In this document: positions 8,128 through 21,513 of the stretch, piece by piece
Layout: every line of letters starts with the position of its first letter
Position numbering within the stretch: position 1 is the first letter of the stretch
Virus record (IMG/VR): IMGVR_UViG_2541047736_000010
Span: 1-25,115 of that record
DNA length: 25,115 nt
From: a virus
Lineage: Duplodnaviria > Heunggongvirae > Uroviricota > Caudoviricetes
Strand: one strand, 5' to 3'
The notes under the pieces: model-generated
Databases searched by the model: none
What the model saw: only the letters and a program-made list of their open reading frames with translations
What the model was told of the DNA's origin: nothing
Program-made: the position numbers and the translations under genes

Positions 8128-8184
8128 AGCAATTTAGATAATCGTGCAGACTACGCCCCCTCATATCACATGGAAGGTACTACA

Positions 8185-8595
8185 ATGGCTCAGGTTGCCA
8201 TTTTTAAACAAATATTCGATAAAGTGCGAAATAATTTAAACTATCACTGGTTTTATTCTGAACTAAAACGTCACAATGTCTCACATTACATTTACTATTT
8301 AGCCACAGAGAATATTCATCTTGTTCTTGAAAACGATAATACGGTTTTAATAAAAGGGCAGGGTAAGGTTGTAAATGTAAGATTTTCAAAAAATAAATGC
8401 CTTATAGAAGCCACCTTAAAAGGATTCAAATCAGGAGAGTTATCATTTTACGAATACAGGAAAAATCTTGCTACAGCAGGGGTTTTCAGATGGATTACAA
8501 ATATCCACGAAAACAAAAGGTATTACTATACCTTTGATAATTCATTACTCTTTACTGAGAACATTCAGAACACTACACAAATATTTCCGCACTAA
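8185..8595 (+). CDS. ybcV: YbcV-like prophage protein (DUF1398)
   Basis: [58 protein letters not shown]...[23 protein letters not shown] resembles recalled E. coli DLP12 YbcV. Start placed at the internal ATG 8185, which gives 136 aa and has GGAAGG 7 nt upstream. Gene is visibly AT-rich. Confidence 0.7.
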
Positions 8596-9183: not shown

Positions 9184-9453
9184 CTACTTCACTTTTGCTT
9201 TTGCTTTTGCTTCCGCTCGCTTACGCCGGCGCTCTTCTTTCCTCTCGGCTTTTGCCATGTCCATGAATGCCTGCATGATCGAGTTCCGCATCATGTAGCT
9301 AACAAAGTGATGATTGACACAGCCGTTGAGGCGCAGCTGCTCGCCAAACTCATCCACCGAGGCCAATGCTTCCATCATGCCCTTCTCGCCTTTCATGAAC
9401 TCTGAGAAGTCGCGCCCCGCTCTGGAGGCGCATTCAATAACACGATCACTCAT
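9184..9453 (-). CDS. Hypothetical protein with a highly charged KAERKEERRRKRAEAKAKAK C-terminal tail
   Basis: 89-aa ORF whose ATG (9451-9453) overlaps the stop of the upstream KilA-N gene, suggesting translational coupling. No family recognised. Confidence 0.45.
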   Translation of the reverse strand: MSDRVIECASRAGRDFSEFMKGEKGMMEALASVDEFGEQLRLNGCVNHHFVSYMMRNSIMQAFMDMAKAERKEERRRKRAEAKAKAKVK

Positions 9454-9947
9454 CCCGGAAGCCCGGGGATCGTAATCTGCAGCTGGTTAGCCAGGGAGTT
9501 AATCTCAGCGACCAACACAGGCTTCGTATAGCGCCATGCTGCCAGCCCTTGTCCGCAGAAGCTCGCCATGTCTTTCTTCTGGTCAAACTCATGACATTTC
9601 ATGTTGAGCTGCGCACTTAAGCTGTTGCGATGCTGAAGTTCTCCGGTGAAGTAGTCATCGAGGACTTTATAGGCCGCGTACTTGAACCCGGGGTTTAACC
9701 AAGCCGCATAATCGTAAGCAACAAACTTCCCGCCATATGTTCCACCGTGTACACCGCGCTCAGTAAAAACCACAGATTCGTGGTTTTTCTCCAGCTCGGC
9801 TAAGAACTCTTTGGTCTGCTTGTTTCGCAGGTAGTGGTAAGGCGATTCAGATTCACTTTTACCACTGGCTTTCCACATATCAGTGAGGCAGATCATGCCA
9901 TCTTCACCGATACGAATTGGTTGATTGAAGAGGGTTAATGATTTCAT
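9450..9947 (-). CDS. KilA-N domain protein
   Basis: N-terminal pattern IRIGEDGMICLTDMWKASGKSESESPYHYLRNKQTKEFLAEL fits the KilA-N/APSES-like signature, and parallels the second KilA-N protein at 15110-15907 (IDGIEVRRDAYGRYSLNDLHRAAG...KPAFWLRNEQTERLISEL). Confidence 0.6.
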   Translation of the reverse strand: MKSLTLFNQPIRIGEDGMICLTDMWKASGKSESESPYHYLRNKQTKEFLAELEKNHESVVFTERGVHGGTYGGKFVAYDYAAWLNPGFKYAAYKVLDDYFTGELQHRNSLSAQLNMKCHEFDQKKDMASFCGQGLAAWRYTKPVLVAEINSLANQLQITIPGLPG

Positions 9948-11829: not shown

Positions 11830-12045
11830 TTACTCTCCCCGTGCAGCCTTACGCTTGTCTTCTTTAATCTTGAAATAAAGGTTTGTCAGGTACGTCAGCA
11901 GGCCAAATACCAGGCTACCCAGCACTCCAATTGCCGCCCACTGTGAGGGCGTGACTTTATCTAGCAGCTGTAAAAACCAGTACCCGGCACTACCTGCTGA
12001 GGTGCCATAGGCGACACCCGTTGTTAACTTATCCATGGATTTCAT
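11830..12045 (-). CDS. Class II holin (S21/EssD-type pinholin)
   Basis: 71-aa [71 protein letters not shown], near-identical to the recalled DLP12 EssD / phage 21 S holin. Has the Met1/Met4 dual-start motif, two TM segments and a charged C-terminus. Confidence 0.9.
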
Positions 12046-12150: not shown

Positions 12151-12190
12151 GAGACTCAAAAAATGGAAAAACCCGCTCGACGGCGGGTTT
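12151..12190 (-). terminator. Intrinsic terminator upstream of the holin (candidate tR'-like late terminator)
   Basis: 8-bp stem aaacccgc/gcgggttt (12169-12176 / 12183-12190) with loop tcgacg. On the minus strand it is followed by tttttccatttttt. About 125 bp upstream of the holin start in the late direction. Confidence 0.5.
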
Positions 12191-12320
12191 AAGCTGTGTG
12201 ACGAAGTAACCACTCTTAACAGATTAAGATAAAATTTGCGGACCGCGGTAATTTTTTTTGCTAAATTAAAGCCATATAAAAAAAGATCCATAAGAAATTA
12301 TTAGTATACTAAGGTTTAAC

Positions 12321-13262
12321 ATGGCTACTATTGCGCAATCAAAGAAACAAAAAAAACTTAAAATTGGTTTTTACACCAGCAGTTCTGGGACTATCCGCAG
12401 CCATTCAGTTGCTAAGCAAGCAATTGAAAATCTGTATAATACTTGCGTAACCGTTACGAATAATCATTTTGATACCATCTATAGAAATAAAAAGTTAAAA
12501 ATAGCTTTTATAAATAAAGATACAAAAGCTAAATATTTCTTCGGCTACATGTCATGCTCACGAGAAGAGTATCTCCTTCCTTATATTGGTGATGAATACT
12601 GGAATGAGCACAACATACCACTAGATGATAAAAAATACATAGTCGAAAGAACCTATTTTTTATATTATTACGATAGTGATATTTTAATATTAACTCAAAA
12701 TCATCTTGGGCCGAAAGAATCGGATTTAGCTTATCTGCTTTACAGCCAGAGTGGTAATCCTGGAAATAACTTTTCATTCCAAGCCATCTGGAAAAAAGAG
12801 AGCGTCAAAGAGCTACTTGAAACAGGAAGTACTTTGAGAAGTTGTGATATTGTCCTGGCTGCTCCCAGGAACTTTGATGCAACAAATTACCAGTTAAATA
12901 GTTCATTTTCTAAGGAACTGGTAAATATGATGGTAGGGCTGGGTGGAACACATCTCAAGTTAAATCTAAGGGGACGTGCATCAGGGAGAGTAAAAGTCAA
13001 AGGTTATTTATCAGATCTCGTTAAGGATGGTATTAAAGAACTCCTTGAAAAAATGCCGGGAATTGTAAAAAAAGCGGCAGTAACACAGCCCAAAAATACC
13101 GTTGAACAAAGTCTTCTTGATCAGGTACTCATTTCAGAAAAAAACATATATACCGTTAATGGTTATGGCACTGATAGTGATGTTCTGCAAGCCATGATTT
13201 CTGCTAAAATTGATAACAATGAATACCTTAAGCAATACGATATCAGCAAAAAGAAGGTATAG
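12321..13262 (+). CDS. Unknown 313-aa soluble protein; first gene of an AT-rich two-gene cassette (candidate RexA-like sensor)
   Basis: ATG at 12321 with AAGG 6 nt upstream. Visibly AT-rich and lysine-rich. On the strand opposite all surrounding phage genes. Stop is 3 nt before the next gene's ATG. No family confidently recognised by eye. Confidence 0.7.
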   Translation: MATIAQSKKQKKLKIGFYTSSSGTIRSHSVAKQAIENLYNTCVTVTNNHFDTIYRNKKLKIAFINKDTKAKYFFGYMSCSREEYLLPYIGDEYWNEHNIPLDDKKYIVERTYFLYYYDSDILILTQNHLGPKESDLAYLLYSQSGNPGNNFSFQAIWKKESVKELLETGSTLRSCDIVLAAPRNFDATNYQLNSSFSKELVNMMVGLGGTHLKLNLRGRASGRVKVKGYLSDLVKDGIKELLEKMPGIVKKAAVTQPKNTVEQSLLDQVLISEKNIYTVNGYGTDSDVLQAMISAKIDNNEYLKQYDISKKKV

Positions 13263-13265
13263 GAT

Positions 13266-13709
13266 ATGTTATTGAAATACTTAAGAAACCTGATTGTAAG
13301 TGTTTTTTGCACCTTGTTCCTACTGAGGTATATCCCTCAGATGGGGCATGCTGACATACTTACAGCCTCCGGGGTTATTTCAACTGTATCCGGTATTTTA
13401 TTTGGTTTTATTTTAGCCACAATATCAATTTTTAGTGCTGCTAGTGAAAACTCAAATGGAATAATAAAAGCATTAAAAAACAACAACATACTTCAAGTTA
13501 TTATTGTAAATCTATTAACCGCCGGTGCATCTTTAATTACGGCATGCGTTATTGCTTTGATAGCAATGTTTGCCAATGAAAAGACATTGTTACATGGAGA
13601 AAAAATAGAATTTATTTTAATTATCGAATCTTTATCTCTTCTTATCATTTCAGTAATAACTTTTGCCTTTACATGGAGAAAAGTAAACTGGATACTCCCC
13701 CACATTTAA
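13266..13709 (+). CDS. Small polytopic membrane protein (about four TM helices); candidate RexB-like channel/effector
   Basis: 147 aa with four hydrophobic stretches (about residues 9-23, 31-59, 75-102, 115-136). Tightly coupled to the upstream gene. From memory, lambda RexB is 144 aa with four TM helices and an FRHYIPG stretch in its first helix; this protein has LLRYIPQMG at the same place. Confidence 0.75.
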   Translation: MLLKYLRNLIVSVFCTLFLLRYIPQMGHADILTASGVISTVSGILFGFILATISIFSAASENSNGIIKALKNNNILQVIIVNLLTAGASLITACVIALIAMFANEKTLLHGEKIEFILIIESLSLLIISVITFAFTWRKVNWILPHI

Positions 13710-13710
13710 A

Positions 13711-13732
13711 AAGGGCAGAAATGCCCTTTTTT
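13711..13732. terminator. Bidirectional intrinsic terminator between the cassette and Q
   Basis: Stem gggca/tgccc (13713-13717 / 13722-13726) with loop gaaa, flanked by aaaaa upstream and tttttt downstream, so both strands read hairpin plus U-tract. Abuts both the cassette stop and the Q stop. Confidence 0.7.
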
Positions 13733-14110
13733 CTACTCCATTTCAAGTTTAACATCCAGCATTGAAAGGCATCCATCAATAAACCCTTCAGCCATCTGTA
13801 TCTCTATACGTATCAATTTCTCATCTTTTTTGCGAGCTCTTGCAAGCTTTCTTTTCGAGATGCCATACAGGTAATGGGCCACAATCAAAGAATGCTCGTA
13901 CGGTTTTCGCTTTTTAAGAAGAGCAAGACAACCTTCAATAATTAATGCATCACTATCTGAACAAGCCTGACGTGTTTTGCTTGTATAGGGAAGAAGCCCT
14001 TTAAACCCAGCAGCTACAGGAGAATAGTCTACTCCTGAACTATCACTCGCCGCCCATGCTCCCCAACGATCCAGAACCATTTGAATATCACGCATCAACT
14101 TTCTCCACAA
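13733..14110 (-). CDS. Late antitermination protein Q (phage 82 / QuuD type)
   Basis: MRDIQMVLDRWGAWAASDSSGVDYSPVAAGFKGL...GFIDGCLSMLDVKLEME resembles recalled DLP12 QuuD / phage 82 Q. Start could be the first Met (14110) or the Met five codons in. Confidence 0.85.
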   Translation of the reverse strand: MWRKLMRDIQMVLDRWGAWAASDSSGVDYSPVAAGFKGLLPYTSKTRQACSDSDALIIEGCLALLKKRKPYEHSLIVAHYLYGISKRKLARARKKDEKLIRIEIQMAEGFIDGCLSMLDVKLEME

Positions 14111-14112
14111 AA

Positions 14113-15108
14113 TCAGGCCAGCACGCCAGTTGCCAGCGCACGATCGATAAAACGAAATATCAGCTCCAGCTGGGAGCCATACCTCTCTTCAAATGCCACG
14201 GTATCCGCATGCAGCTCGTCGTGATGCTTTCTGCACAAAGGCAACACAAAAAGGTCATGCGCTTTTGTTCCCATTCCACCCTGACCGTAACCTATCAGGT
14301 GGTGGGGATCATCAGCGGGCTTTCCACAACATGCACACGGCTGTGTCTTAACCCAGCGCGTGTACTTTTCATTAACCCAGCGGCGACGTTTTGGGCGTAA
14401 CATAAAAGACTCCGGCGACTCCGGATCCACTTTCAGCGCCAGCACCTTTTTCGCTTTATCCTGGATAATGCTGGTGGCAGGAACCGAAGGAACAAGGTCA
14501 CTCTCCCGGGTGACAGACGGCACAACAGGCTTCGGTAATCTCAGTGCCTTACGGGCTGCACTTTCCGGTAAGGCATCCGCCAGGTCATTACGAATCAGCC
14601 ACCAGCACAGTTCCGGCATTGTCACAACGTGACTGTCATCAAAACCGAGATCCCGACGCACAACAGACAACACCCAGCGGGCACAGTTATCCGTTGCCAT
14701 TGATTCCAGCCGTTCCGTGAACTGATCGCGCAGCTGGTTATCGCAGTGCCAGCACAGACGGATTGCACCCGGAGCGTGTCGCATTGTGGTCATGTTCTCG
14801 CTGTGCCAGTCGGAATGAGGCCACTGGCAGCCTTTTTCACGAAGTAACCAGCTTTCAAGACATTCCACGCCACCAGCACGACGGATCACTGCCTCATTGC
14901 GGAACACGGCCCGAACGGCAGGATCATCCGCCAGCGGTTGTGATGCCGCCGGAACGGCACCACTCGCGAAAGATGAATAACGCTCCGGCTCAGGCTCCAG
15001 CAGGACACGCCCCTGCATAAACAGGGGCATCAGCTCTGAACCTGGCCTGAACAATACGATCCCCATACGCGGGGCAACTTCAGGGGTCAGTAGTGCTCTC
15101 ACGGTCAC
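14113..15108 (-). CDS. DUF968 family protein (YdfU-like)
   Basis: C-terminal motif CACCGKPADDPHHLIGYGQGGMGTKAHDLFVLPLCRKHHDELHAD is typical of DUF968 proteins found just upstream of Q in Qin-like prophages. Confidence 0.6.
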   Translation of the reverse strand: MTVRALLTPEVAPRMGIVLFRPGSELMPLFMQGRVLLEPEPERYSSFASGAVPAASQPLADDPAVRAVFRNEAVIRRAGGVECLESWLLREKGCQWPHSDWHSENMTTMRHAPGAIRLCWHCDNQLRDQFTERLESMATDNCARWVLSVVRRDLGFDDSHVVTMPELCWWLIRNDLADALPESAARKALRLPKPVVPSVTRESDLVPSVPATSIIQDKAKKVLALKVDPESPESFMLRPKRRRWVNEKYTRWVKTQPCACCGKPADDPHHLIGYGQGGMGTKAHDLFVLPLCRKHHDELHADTVAFEERYGSQLELIFRFIDRALATGVLA

Positions 15109-15109
15109 C

Positions 15110-15907
15110 TCAATGAACGGTATCGAGCAGCTTTAACAGCTCAGGGAATCGGGATTCGAAGAAATGCGGCTGCGTCTCGCGCGGATTTGCGGGACTGGTG
15201 ATATTCTTGCCGAACATGCAGCCTTTCGCTGTCAGCGACCAGAATTTTTTGATGTTGTTAATCGCGGTACGGCTGTATCGTTCGCGCTGCTCGACGATCC
15301 CCAGCTTCACCATCTGGTGATATGCCTGATTAGCTGTCAGGCGGATACCATACTGCTTCAGCAGTGCACTCAGTGACAGCGTGGGGCGGCTTGAGCCATC
15401 AGGCGCGTCAGCAGGAGCATCAATGGCATAGCGCGGTGCCAGATTCGGTAAGCCAACAGCCTCCTGGAGTTTCTGACAGGCACCAAGCACTGAAGAGTTA
15501 GACAGGTTTAATTCCCGGCGCATAAAGTCCAGCAGAATCACACCAGCCTGCATCTTGTCAGCAGCCTGTCCGGATAATTTTTCCGGTGCGCTGGTTACCA
15601 TGTCGAAAGTACGGATCACCTTCAGATGGAATGACGGGCTGATCCACATTGCATAGGCATACACCAGTTCTTTGCAGACATACGTCCCCTGGTTATTTCC
15701 GCCACGAATAACGTTAACTGGCTCTATATTGACCGAGTTGCAAATCTGCAACTCGCTTATTAAACGTTCAGTTTGCTCATTGCGGAGCCAGAATGCAGGC
15801 TTATGCTTATCCAGAGAACCGGCAGCCCTGTGCAGATCGTTCAGGCTGTAACGACCATAAGCATCACGACGAACTTCAATACCATCAATGACCATCAGAT
15901 TATTCAT
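15110..15907 (-). CDS. KilA-N domain protein (Roi / antirepressor-like), nin-region
   Basis: N-terminus MNNLMVIDGIEVRRDAYGRYSLNDLHRAAGSLDKHKPAFWLRNEQTERLISEL is a clear KilA-N signature. Located between RusA and DUF968. Confidence 0.7.
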   Translation of the reverse strand: MNNLMVIDGIEVRRDAYGRYSLNDLHRAAGSLDKHKPAFWLRNEQTERLISELQICNSVNIEPVNVIRGGNNQGTYVCKELVYAYAMWISPSFHLKVIRTFDMVTSAPEKLSGQAADKMQAGVILLDFMRRELNLSNSSVLGACQKLQEAVGLPNLAPRYAIDAPADAPDGSSRPTLSLSALLKQYGIRLTANQAYHQMVKLGIVEQRERYSRTAINNIKKFWSLTAKGCMFGKNITSPANPRETQPHFFESRFPELLKLLDTVH

Positions 15908-19302: not shown

Positions 19303-19929
19303 ATGGAAACGGTTGGTCAGCGTATAAAAGCTCTGAGAAGAGTTACCGGAACGTCCCAGAAAGAATTGGGTAAATTTTGTGGAGTAAGCGACGTTGCTGT
19401 GGGGTACTGGGAGAAAGACATCAATACCCCTGGTGGGGAGGCACTTTCGAAATTAGCGAAGTTCTTCAATACGTCAATAGATTACATTCTTTATGGTGCT
19501 GAGTTTGAAGGCAAACTCGTCACAAACATGCGCAGAGTTCCTGTAATATCGTGGGTTCAGGCTGGGCAGTTTACTGAGTGCAGGGCAGCAGAAGTGTTTA
19601 GTGAAGTGGACAAGTGGGTAGATACATCATTAAAGATTGGTGATAACTCATTTGCATTAGAGGTTAAAGGTGACTCCATGACTAACCCTAATGGCCTCCC
19701 AACAATACCAGAAGGCGCAACAGTGATTGTAGATCCAGATGCAGAACCTCGTCATGGAAAAATAGTCATCGCTCGACTTGATGGAACAAACGAAGCTACA
19801 GTAAAAAAATTAGTCATCGATGGCCCTCAAAAGTTTTTAGTGCCATTAAATCCTCGGTATCCCAACATCCCTATCAATGGTAATTGCCTTATCATTGGTG
19901 TAGTCAAAGGAGTTCAATACGAACTCTAA
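19303..19929 (+). CDS. CI-type prophage repressor (HTH plus S24 LexA-like autopeptidase domain)
   Basis: N-terminal XRE-type HTH (QKELGKFCGVSDVAVGYWEKD). C-terminal S24 signature with GDSM (catalytic Ser) and VKKL (Lys). No strong ribosome-binding site, so possibly leaderless like lambda cI from pRM. Confidence 0.9.
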   Translation: METVGQRIKALRRVTGTSQKELGKFCGVSDVAVGYWEKDINTPGGEALSKLAKFFNTSIDYILYGAEFEGKLVTNMRRVPVISWVQAGQFTECRAAEVFSEVDKWVDTSLKIGDNSFALEVKGDSMTNPNGLPTIPEGATVIVDPDAEPRHGKIVIARLDGTNEATVKKLVIDGPQKFLVPLNPRYPNIPINGNCLIIGVVKGVQYEL

Positions 19930-20159: not shown

Positions 20160-20681
20160 TTAAGGAATCCAAGGCGAATTCAGATCTCGCCCCAACTCAC
20201 GTAATGATCTTGGTCGTTCGTACATCGGATTTTTTTCCATAAGAAATTTATTTTCACAGTGAAGGCAACGGCTTGTAAGAAAATGAGAAGTTTTACCTAC
20301 TGGAAGCGGATGAAGTATCGATTTTATATTTTTGGAATAACAAAGTGGGCACAGATGCACAGTTATTTCTTTTCCACTCACAATTTCATTTTTAGAGTAA
20401 ACAAAAGCACCAGAGTCAAGCTGATCAAGGACATATCCTTCTACCTTGGCACAAAAATCTTCAAACTCTGCAATTTTTGCTTTGAGATGCATCACCTCTT
20501 CATCACGAAGGCGGATCGCATCGCCAAGAGAGAAGCATTCTGCCTGAAGCGTGATTAGTTTGTTCTGGAGTTCAATGGTTGCAGCTTTAACTTCTGCATC
20601 CGTTTTCGCGTCATTAATAACCTTAGCAAGACCGGCAGTCTCCTTTATAGCGGCCATAGCCGCAGACAGTTCAGCTATCAC
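20160..20681 (-). CDS. Coiled-coil plus zinc-ribbon protein of unknown function in the immunity region
   Basis: 173 aa. N-terminal ~75 residues are heptad-like and charged. C-terminus has CPLC ... CLHC (C-x2-C ... C-x2-C). AT-rich gene, convergent with cI. Start ambiguous: GTG at 20681 or ATG at 20657. Confidence 0.6.
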   Translation of the reverse strand: MIAELSAAMAAIKETAGLAKVINDAKTDAEVKAATIELQNKLITLQAECFSLGDAIRLRDEEVMHLKAKIAEFEDFCAKVEGYVLDQLDSGAFVYSKNEIVSGKEITVHLCPLCYSKNIKSILHPLPVGKTSHFLTSRCLHCENKFLMEKNPMYERPRSLRELGRDLNSPWIP

Positions 20682-21010
20682 GTTGAATACTCAGCTAGTT
20701 GTTGGGGATATCCAGATTAACCAAATCCTTGTTGTTGGGGAATAACTAGGTCCACCTCGCCTGATGTGGCTAAAAGCAGGCACATAACAGCTAAGTATTT
20801 TCAACCAGAGAGAATCCTTAGCGTTGTGGTGAATGCGGCTCAGCGCACGCGGGTTAAGGTTGAGGCTGACAGTCGACCTTCTGTGGATACCCACCCGCCT
20901 GGTGTGCAACCTTCGCCAGGCACCGGGAGGCACCCGGCACCACAACTTTATGCTGTGTGTAGTCCTGGCGGTATCAGCTTGTACCCTTGCTTCCGGCTGG
21001 TACCGTCCTT

Positions 21011-21105
21011 TTTACAAAACAGAGAAGAGCATCACCGGACGACGGGCTCATAACCCAATCCATCCGGGCGGCTGCCACCGCAGGTGTTCTTCTCTGTTTT
21101 GTGGA
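21011..21105 (+). other. Long imperfect hairpin in the early-left leader (candidate cis-acting RNA element)
   Basis: 17 contiguous pairs (16 Watson-Crick plus one G-U) between 21014-21030 (acaaaacagagaagagc) and 21086-21102 (gttcttctctgttttgt), enclosing a 55-nt GC-rich loop with sub-hairpins. No U-tract follows on either strand. Lies just upstream of the first early-left gene. Confidence 0.4.
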
Positions 21106-21150
21106 GAAACCAACCGACCCTGCAGGGTCGATATGATGGGGAGCAGCAAA

Positions 21151-21513
21151 ATGGCTAGCGAACGCAGTACTGATGTGCAGGCATTTATCGGGGAGCTGGA
21201 CGGCGGCGTATTTGAAACCAAAATCGGCGCAGTTCTCAGTGAAGTCGCTTCCGGTGTGATGAACACGAAAACCAAAGGTAAGGTCTCGCTCAACCTGGAA
21301 ATCGAACCGTTTGATGAGAACCGTGTAAAAATCAAACACAAACTCTCATATGTTCGCCCGACTAACCGCGGGAAAATTTCCGAAGAAGACACCACCGAAA
21401 CGCCGATGTATGTCAATCGCGGTGGTCGCCTGACTATTCTGCAGGAAGACCAGGGACAATTACTGACTCTTGCCGGTGAACCTGACGGAAAACTCCGCGC
21501 AGCAGGTCGTTAA
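21151..21513 (+). CDS. yfdP: YfdP-like prophage protein
   Basis: MASERSTDVQAFIGELDGGVFETKIGAVLSEVASGV... Start placed at ATG 21151 (GGGGAG 7 nt upstream), giving 120 aa; alternative ATG at 21133. The track ORF extends further upstream through implausible sequence. Adjacent to the YfdQ/R/S/T homologues, as in CPS-53. Confidence 0.65.
   Translation: MASERSTDVQAFIGELDGGVFETKIGAVLSEVASGVMNTKTKGKVSLNLEIEPFDENRVKIKHKLSYVRPTNRGKISEEDTTETPMYVNRGGRLTILQEDQGQLLTLAGEPDGKLRAAGR

Follow-up and report, generated by a model that had tools for sequence, protein, structure and literature searches.

What is an AT-rich, plus-strand gene pair doing in the middle of the minus-strand genes of a lambdoid prophage? 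The question is raised by IMG/VR record IMGVR_UViG_2541047736_000010, of which we analyzed positions 1 to 25,115 (25,115 nt, the whole stretch of DNA studied here and called the window below). In the lambdoid prophage that the window represents, the minus strand carries all structural, lysis, antiterminator Q, nin/replication, and early-right genes. Two plus-strand genes break into this block between Q and the holin, ORF1 (12321–13262, +, 313 amino acids [aa]) and ORF2 (13266–13709, +, 147 aa), and every gene neighboring the pair is on the minus strand. The stop codon of ORF1 and the ATG of ORF2 are separated by a three-base gap (GAT), and the GC content of 12223–13732 is 0.337, compared with 0.509 for the remaining window. 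The initial annotation of this DNA, made from the sequence by eye, had described a tightly coupled, AT-rich cassette at this place and had proposed that it encodes a divergent Rex-like pair. The layout was recovered as described, and the proposal of Rex kinship held up.

The answer we favor, with reasonable confidence and by analogy with characterized systems, is that the cassette is a remote homolog of lambda RexA/RexB that occupies the Q-to-lysis slot as a self-contained moron and acts as an abortive-infection defense. The two parts of this reading differ in strength: that the cassette is a RexAB-type homolog appears very likely, and that it functions as an abortive-infection defense appears probable, again by analogy. 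Three lines of evidence carry it, namely homology of ORF1 to RexA at the level of the predicted fold, homology of ORF2 to RexB at the level of sequence profiles, and the obligate pairing of the two genes on mobile elements in defense-like neighborhoods.

Kinship of ORF1 and ORF2 with lambda RexA and RexB

ORF1 passes the Pfam model DUF6731 (PF20505) with 40.3 bits against a gathering threshold (GA) of 27 (E 3.6e-10), belongs to phrog_7651, and is labeled 'DUF6731 family protein' in RefSeq in its identical Escherichia coli copies. The initial annotation had been unable to place this protein and had considered that it might be a new sensor; its membership in DUF6731 means that it does not found a wholly new family. 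The top PDB match of the predicted ORF1 structure was lambda RexA (8TWQ), with two independent methods in agreement. The model displays the organization that defines the RexA fold, a split globular domain with an inserted RdgC-like dimerization domain of four strands and four helices, at approximately 10–14% identity to RexA in structural alignments. These comparisons demonstrate, at the level of predicted structure, that ORF1 has the two-domain fold of the RexA/RdgC type and that the uncharacterized family DUF6731 has the RexA fold. ORF1 is also a basic protein (isoelectric point 9.2) with many conserved basic residues, and is the putative soluble sensor or DNA-binding partner of the pair.

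Direct sequence comparison of ORF1 was less informative. A BLASTP alignment with lambda RexA was weak (E 0.25), suggestive but not proof of relationship, and a phmmer search of ORF1 against PDB sequences returned nothing relevant. Low-stringency hhalign alignments of ORF1 and RexA that extended beyond two motifs were unreliable and were not used for mapping the RexA DNA-binding residues R219 and K221; the global mode of hhalign produced end-to-start alignments, which are meaningless.

ORF2 (phrog_8552) was predicted by AlphaFold with a pLDDT (predicted local distance difference test) score of 92.7 as four long helices (residues 2–22, 28–61, 75–102, and 114–146) plus a short loop helix. Its hydrophobic cores are centered at about residues 15, 46, 90, and 125, compared with 15, 56, 96, and 126 in RexB, and basic residues occur at the N-terminus and in the loop between transmembrane helices 2 and 3 in both proteins. 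Hydropathy and model therefore agree with the four hydrophobic helices counted by eye in the initial annotation, and on this model ORF2 is an inner-membrane protein of the ~144-aa class with four transmembrane helices, in a presumed membrane orientation. The motif R-x-YIP, which the initial annotation had described as common to ORF2 and RexB, is a more qualified case: RHYIP in lambda RexB and LRYIP in ORF2 do stand at similar N-terminal positions, but the motif is not conserved within the ORF2 family.

The link between ORF2 and RexB was established through family profiles. BLASTP of ORF2 against lambda RexB was weak (E 0.012) and, as for ORF1, suggestive rather than proof. A profile of 27 ORF2 family members, searched against 1.84 billion representative proteins, gave 124 matches, mostly of 135–160 aa and aligned end to end. 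Lambda RexB scored at least 12 bits on 35 of 121 ORF2-family matches (best 29.8), compared with about 0.1 matches for each composition-matched shuffle and none for the reversed sequence. When the ORF2-family intermediates were scanned against Pfam one by one, RexB gave the best E-value (8.7e-7, four members); Yip1 tied with it on member count, at E 1.8e-4. Alignment of the ORF2 superfamily (109 sequences) with the RexB alignment in hhalign reached a probability of 80% (E 1.4e-5) over 63 co-linear columns (21–84 versus 20–84), with a P of 0.24 for the reversed RexB control, and a hidden Markov model (HMM) of the superfamily matched lambda RexB at residues 13–137 (E 1.6e-7). These profile comparisons demonstrate that, as judged from sequence, ORF2 belongs to the RexB superfamily of ~145-aa four-helix membrane proteins, in which it would be the effector of the pair.

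A metagenomic locus (L034) provides a bridge that joins the two proteins in a single gene pair. Here, the gene for a DUF6731 protein (43.4 bits) directly precedes that for a 138-aa protein, which passes Pfam RexB (29.9 bits, GA 27) and also matches the PADLOC RexB model. At a second locus (L037:2938–4441), a RexB-like 146-aa protein (PADLOC RexB, 28 bits) is encoded after a 343-aa protein that is unrelated, carries neither DUF6731 nor RexA signal, and is adjoined by HTH_3 and HTH_35 repressor genes. The arrangement at L037 hints that sensors can be swapped on a conserved effector.

Several results weigh against this reading. Neither Pfam (PF15969, E up to 1) nor PADLOC (PDLC02339, E up to 10) returned a RexA match for ORF1, and neither returned a RexB match for ORF2 (PF15968 and PDLC02340) at permissive thresholds; the lambda proteins, used as positive controls, scored 323 and 360 bits (RexA) and 305 and 202 bits (RexB) with the same models. 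These Rex HMMs recognize the lambda proteins and not those of the window, so the cassette lies outside those families as currently defined. The global TM-score (template modeling score) of ORF1 against RexA is low, 0.36–0.39; a different orientation of the domains would fit such a value. The hhalign comparison of ORF1 with a shallow RexA profile was marginal (P about 0.03). A Foldseek search of the ORF2 model against BFVD gave nothing at E ≤ 0.001 and RexB lay outside the top 50, in a fold comparison made without any solved RexB structure. No sigma-70 consensus was detected ahead of ORF1 in a promoter scan. The cI-type repressor gene is 5.6 kb from the cassette, with the replication and nin genes between. 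Finally, the trigger of lambda RexAB is itself still unknown, and in the actinobacteriophage pair Butters gp30/31 the roles are reversed, the cytosolic protein being the effector.

More broadly, Pfam, NCBIfam, and PADLOC searches gave no defense or Rex match for either window protein. The profile and structure comparisons proposed in the initial annotation did find kinship with Rex, and did so at the profile or structure level only.

Linkage and distribution of the gene pair

In every complete related locus examined, across 39–98% identity, an ORF1-type gene lies directly upstream of, and co-oriented with, an ORF2-type gene. This linkage bears on a reading in which ORF1 would be an RdgC-like, recombination-associated DNA-binding protein and ORF2 an unrelated chance neighbor. 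We regard that reading as highly improbable: the two genes occur together in all of these loci, RexA scores far above RdgC (PDB 2OWL) with both structural methods, and ORF2 is independently linked to RexB.

Among Enterobacterales, the pair recurs in the same slot. It was found in the Q-to-lysis slot of Pectobacterium (311 + 147 aa) and of a divergent E. coli lineage (313 + 149 aa, 45% identity), between Q and the holin in Salmonella prophages (L047–L049; 313 + 149 aa), and in the Q–holin slot of the isolated phage vB_EcoS-733R5 (L043). The homolog of ORF1 in this phage (L043:3056–3997, URC09948.1; 87% identical) is entered in GenBank as 'portal (connector) protein', an evident mis-annotation. 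In phage cdtI, orf54/orf53 correspond to a cassette 99% identical to that of the window.

The Salmonella pair is surrounded by a cargo cluster of HicAB, a Gp49/HTH toxin–antitoxin pair, and a Bro-N protein, a setting that raises the idea of a toxin–antitoxin-like addiction module in which ORF2 is a membrane toxin restrained by ORF1. Such a module would follow the reversed logic of Butters gp30/gp31, where the toxic protein is the cytosolic one, which its membrane partner sequesters. We consider this improbable, since neither protein is similar to any such family in Pfam, NCBIfam, or PADLOC, and since in lambda RexAB and in the Rex-like systems Sucellos and RexABpp, compared below, the membrane protein is the effector and both genes are needed for defense.

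Outside Enterobacterales, the pair was found on a Vibrio chromosomal island near toxRS (341 + 150 aa) and in Vibrio phage 10N.286.54.F4_PE001 (L044:1389–2896; 351 + 150 aa), where it directly follows the integrase. This last carrier is a member of the Vinavirales, a non-tailed, PM2-like temperate element; hence the cassette crosses from one virus realm to another, unrelated one. The pair is also present on metagenomic contigs, and on one of these it has a Shedu (SduA_C) gene beside it. In L035:2603–6790 and L036, a DUF6731 gene paired with a gene for a 159-aa protein lies two genes from SduA_C and AAA_17/18 genes, a neighborhood resembling a defense island. Among 20 representatives of the superfamily, mostly metagenomic sequences, the named strong matches include none from Vibrio cholerae N16961 or Pseudomonas putida. 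When the ORF1 alignment was used for a pattern-based scan of species-representative genomes, only three loci came up, too few for distribution statistics.

Within E. coli the cassette is rare. It was detected in 25 of 5426 complete genomes (~0.5%), and its flanking backbone in about 2660 records. Comparison with phage vB_EcoS-733R5 gave a proportion of synonymous differences (pS) of 0.78, with nonsynonymous proportions (pN) of 0.08 for ORF1 and 0.18 for ORF2, and the ratio of nonsynonymous to synonymous substitution rates (dN/dS) of ORF1 against Citrobacter braakii was 0.08. These patterns indicate that both genes are real and under strong purifying selection.

The slot between Q and the probable late leader

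Downstream, ORF2 converges on the antiterminator Q gene (13733–14110, −; PF06530, E 7e-52), with a DUF968 gene (14113–15108, −) beyond it. A hairpin (13708–13731) sits where the ends of ORF2 and Q converge; its stem of 10 bp has A and T runs on its flanks, and its folding energy is −13.4 kcal/mol for the plus strand (z-score −4.0) and −13.0 kcal/mol for the minus strand (z-score −2.5). The initial annotation had placed a bidirectional terminator after the pair, and the folding energies on the two strands agree with it: the hairpin is likely to be one. It was not listed by a consensus terminator scanner, probably because the stem can extend into the A/T runs. On the other side, the first lysis gene encodes a P21-type class II holin (11830–12045, −; PF04971, E 2e-35); DUF1327, endolysin, and Rz genes are further minus-strand neighbors.

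Upstream of ORF1, an AT-rich leader (12253–12320, +) with a ribosome-binding site AAGG at 12311–12314 is conserved among close cassettes only, and presumably contains the cassette's own promoter. Next to this leader lies an imperfect palindrome, TTGCGGACCGCG (12236–12247), which is invariant in all six Rex-like carriers compared (the window, L003, L005, L006, L040, and L043), whose cassette proteins are 45–98% identical. The porin-carrying phages L045 and L046 have a perfect palindrome, TTACGTACGTAA, at the same position. The site TTGCGGACCGCG may be an operator, a recombination junction, or a Q-related site. A hairpin at 12236–12248 was also considered as a terminator and was rejected, its RNA fold being too weak.

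Beyond the palindrome, the leader upstream of the holin (12169–12222, −) contains a tR'-like intrinsic terminator (12190–12169) and a conserved ACCACTCTTAACAG block. Phages 434 (L045) and Kati (L046), which lack the cassette, are 100% identical to the window over the 60 bases that precede the AT-rich island (12160–12222), and this stretch is therefore phage backbone and not part of the cassette. It is most likely the late leader, which would place the cassette between Q and the late leader. Phages 434 and Kati carry a plus-strand NmpC/Lc porin moron in the slot of the cassette. The presence of a porin or a Rex-like pair at one backbone site indicates that the slot exchanges opposite-strand morons. 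Elsewhere in the window, a gene for a DUF1398 protein (8170–8595, +) is surrounded by minus-strand genes in the interval from the terminase to the lysis region and may be another moron. The prophage also encodes two separate KilA-N proteins (9450–9947, −, and 15110–15907, −), one of them fused to ORF11CD3.

The contents of this slot could also be taken to favor an action at the membrane, either superinfection exclusion or lysis modulation, with ORF2 blocking DNA entry or acting on the holin and ORF1 as a cytoplasmic accessory. The gene for ORF2, a small inner-membrane protein, does lie beside that of the holin, and the porin that occupies the slot in other phages modifies the cell surface. Strict co-inheritance with a protein of the RexA fold and the homology of ORF2 to RexB point instead to a sensor–effector pair, and beyond Enterobacterales the pair is no longer found next to lysis genes; we consider this explanation unlikely, though less so than an addiction module.

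The location of the repressor bears on a further question, whether a RexAB-related pair might serve the prophage's own development by tuning induction or lysis timing. The cI-type repressor gene, encoding a LexA-like protein, lies at 19303–19929 (+), so that the pair is relocated away from cI, as the initial annotation had claimed. Two ORFs just past cI, at 20160–20681 (−, 173 aa) and 20833–21513 (+, 226 aa), are without Pfam match; they occupy the position of rexAB in lambda and may be other immunity-region cargo. A developmental role would have precedent in lambda, where RexA, without need of RexB, modulates the CI/Cro switch and RexB acts as an inhibitor of ClpXP/ClpAP proteolysis (PMC11077077), and it would suit a cassette placed between Q and the late leader and lysis genes with a conserved palindrome adjoining. 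Three observations argue the other way: the cassette is distant from cI and is not co-transcribed with it; the pair also occurs in the Vibrio island, in the Vinavirales element, and beside Shedu, without Q, cI, or lysis neighbors; and it is present in so small a fraction of complete E. coli genomes when the flanking backbone is common. Of the alternatives to the defense reading, this one seems to us the least unlikely, at a low probability.

We offer a wider proposal tentatively, as a possibility that is more doubtful than the defense reading. DUF6731 and its ~147-aa partner would form a large, hitherto unrecognized gammaproteobacterial branch of the RexAB superfamily, distinct in sequence from lambda RexAB, Sucellos, and RexABpp. 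The conserved RexB-like membrane effector would be portable and combined with exchangeable sensors (RexA, DUF6731, or an unrelated protein such as the 343-aa one of L037), and in Enterobacterales a cargo-specific palindrome would mark a dedicated insertion site, located between Q and the late promoter.

Proposed mechanism and comparison with known systems

The distant kinship to lambda RexA/RexB suggests that the cassette probably acts by abortive infection to protect the lysogen against other phages. On the model of lambda RexAB, Sucellos, and RexABpp, the pair would be transcribed in the lysogen from its own promoter, with transcription ending at the bidirectional terminator. ORF1, probably as a DNA-binding dimer, would sense a product of the infecting phage or a DNA–protein intermediate and would activate ORF2 oligomers in the inner membrane. 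These oligomers would dissipate membrane potential or integrity, and the infected cell would stop growing or die before the invader finishes its cycle.

No abortive-infection system has been known for longer than RexAB, whose trigger and mechanism have yet to be settled. The present analysis adds a link between DUF6731 and the RexA fold, a bridge in sequence that connects the partner family with RexB, and a definition of the Q-to-late-leader slot. The bridge joins lambda RexAB to many prophage, integrative-element, and island cassettes that are missed by PADLOC, and at least one public mis-annotation ('portal protein') is corrected. The cassette itself is an E. coli-native, easily cloned homolog for comparative mechanistic work.

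Lambda RexA/RexB is the closest reference. In both systems the soluble gene precedes the membrane gene, with products of 279 and 144 aa in lambda and 313 and 147 aa here, and both are prophage-borne; expression in the lysogen, a property of lambda RexAB, is presumed for the cassette. The two differ in that the cassette proteins have no direct HMM match to the Rex models, ORF1 belonging to the separate family DUF6731. They differ also in position: lambda rexAB lies beside cI and is co-transcribed with it from pRM, a trait that the cassette does not share, whereas the cassette is an AT-rich, opposite-strand moron between Q and the late leader.

Other systems resemble the cassette in part. E. coli RdgC (PDB 2OWL), a chromosomal recombination-associated DNA-binding ring, differs in having no membrane partner and gave much weaker scores than RexA. 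The actinobacteriophage pairs Sbash gp30/31, CarolAnn gp44/43, and Butters gp30/31 belong to temperate phages and likewise consist of one cytosolic and one membrane component. They exclude heterotypic phages and, unlike the cassette, come from Gram-positive hosts; the likeness is one of description. Kiwa (KwaA/KwaB) was considered and set aside: PADLOC, which contains Kiwa models, gave no relevant match at E ≤ 10, and the gene order of Kiwa, with the membrane gene first, is the reverse of that of the cassette, in which the soluble gene comes first.

RexABpp of P. putida (PP_5643/PP_5644) was identified by the same logic and, from its published description, has the same architecture as the cassette (PMC12894663). 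It differs in lying just downstream of a Cro/CI-type repressor gene, as lambda rexAB does, and not in the Q-lysis slot, and in its Pseudomonas host (PMC12894663). The same study counted only five described Rex-like systems (PMC12894663).

Sucellos (SclA/SclB), from the V. cholerae superintegron, is structurally RexAB-like and is unmatched by the Rex Pfam domains (bioRxiv 10.1101/2024.07.02.601686). Its two genes form a cassette that has a promoter of its own; both are required for the abortive-infection phenotype, and homologs of Sucellos are reported mostly in prophages, 'often in Salmonella' (bioRxiv 10.1101/2024.07.02.601686). From primer names, we infer that Sucellos corresponds to VCA0367–0368. 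A search with one pattern for the V. cholerae attC repeat gave no match in the loci examined, including those from Vibrio. Sucellos and RexABpp are both RexAB-like pairs recognized from structure only and already validated experimentally as abortive-infection systems (bioRxiv 10.1101/2024.07.02.601686; PMC12894663), which lowers the novelty of the cassette; if its family proves to be that of Sucellos, the value of the present work would lie mainly in annotation and comparative context. Like Sucellos, the ORF1/ORF2 family occurs in Salmonella prophages and in Vibrio, and this shared distribution makes a link between the cassette and Sucellos plausible.

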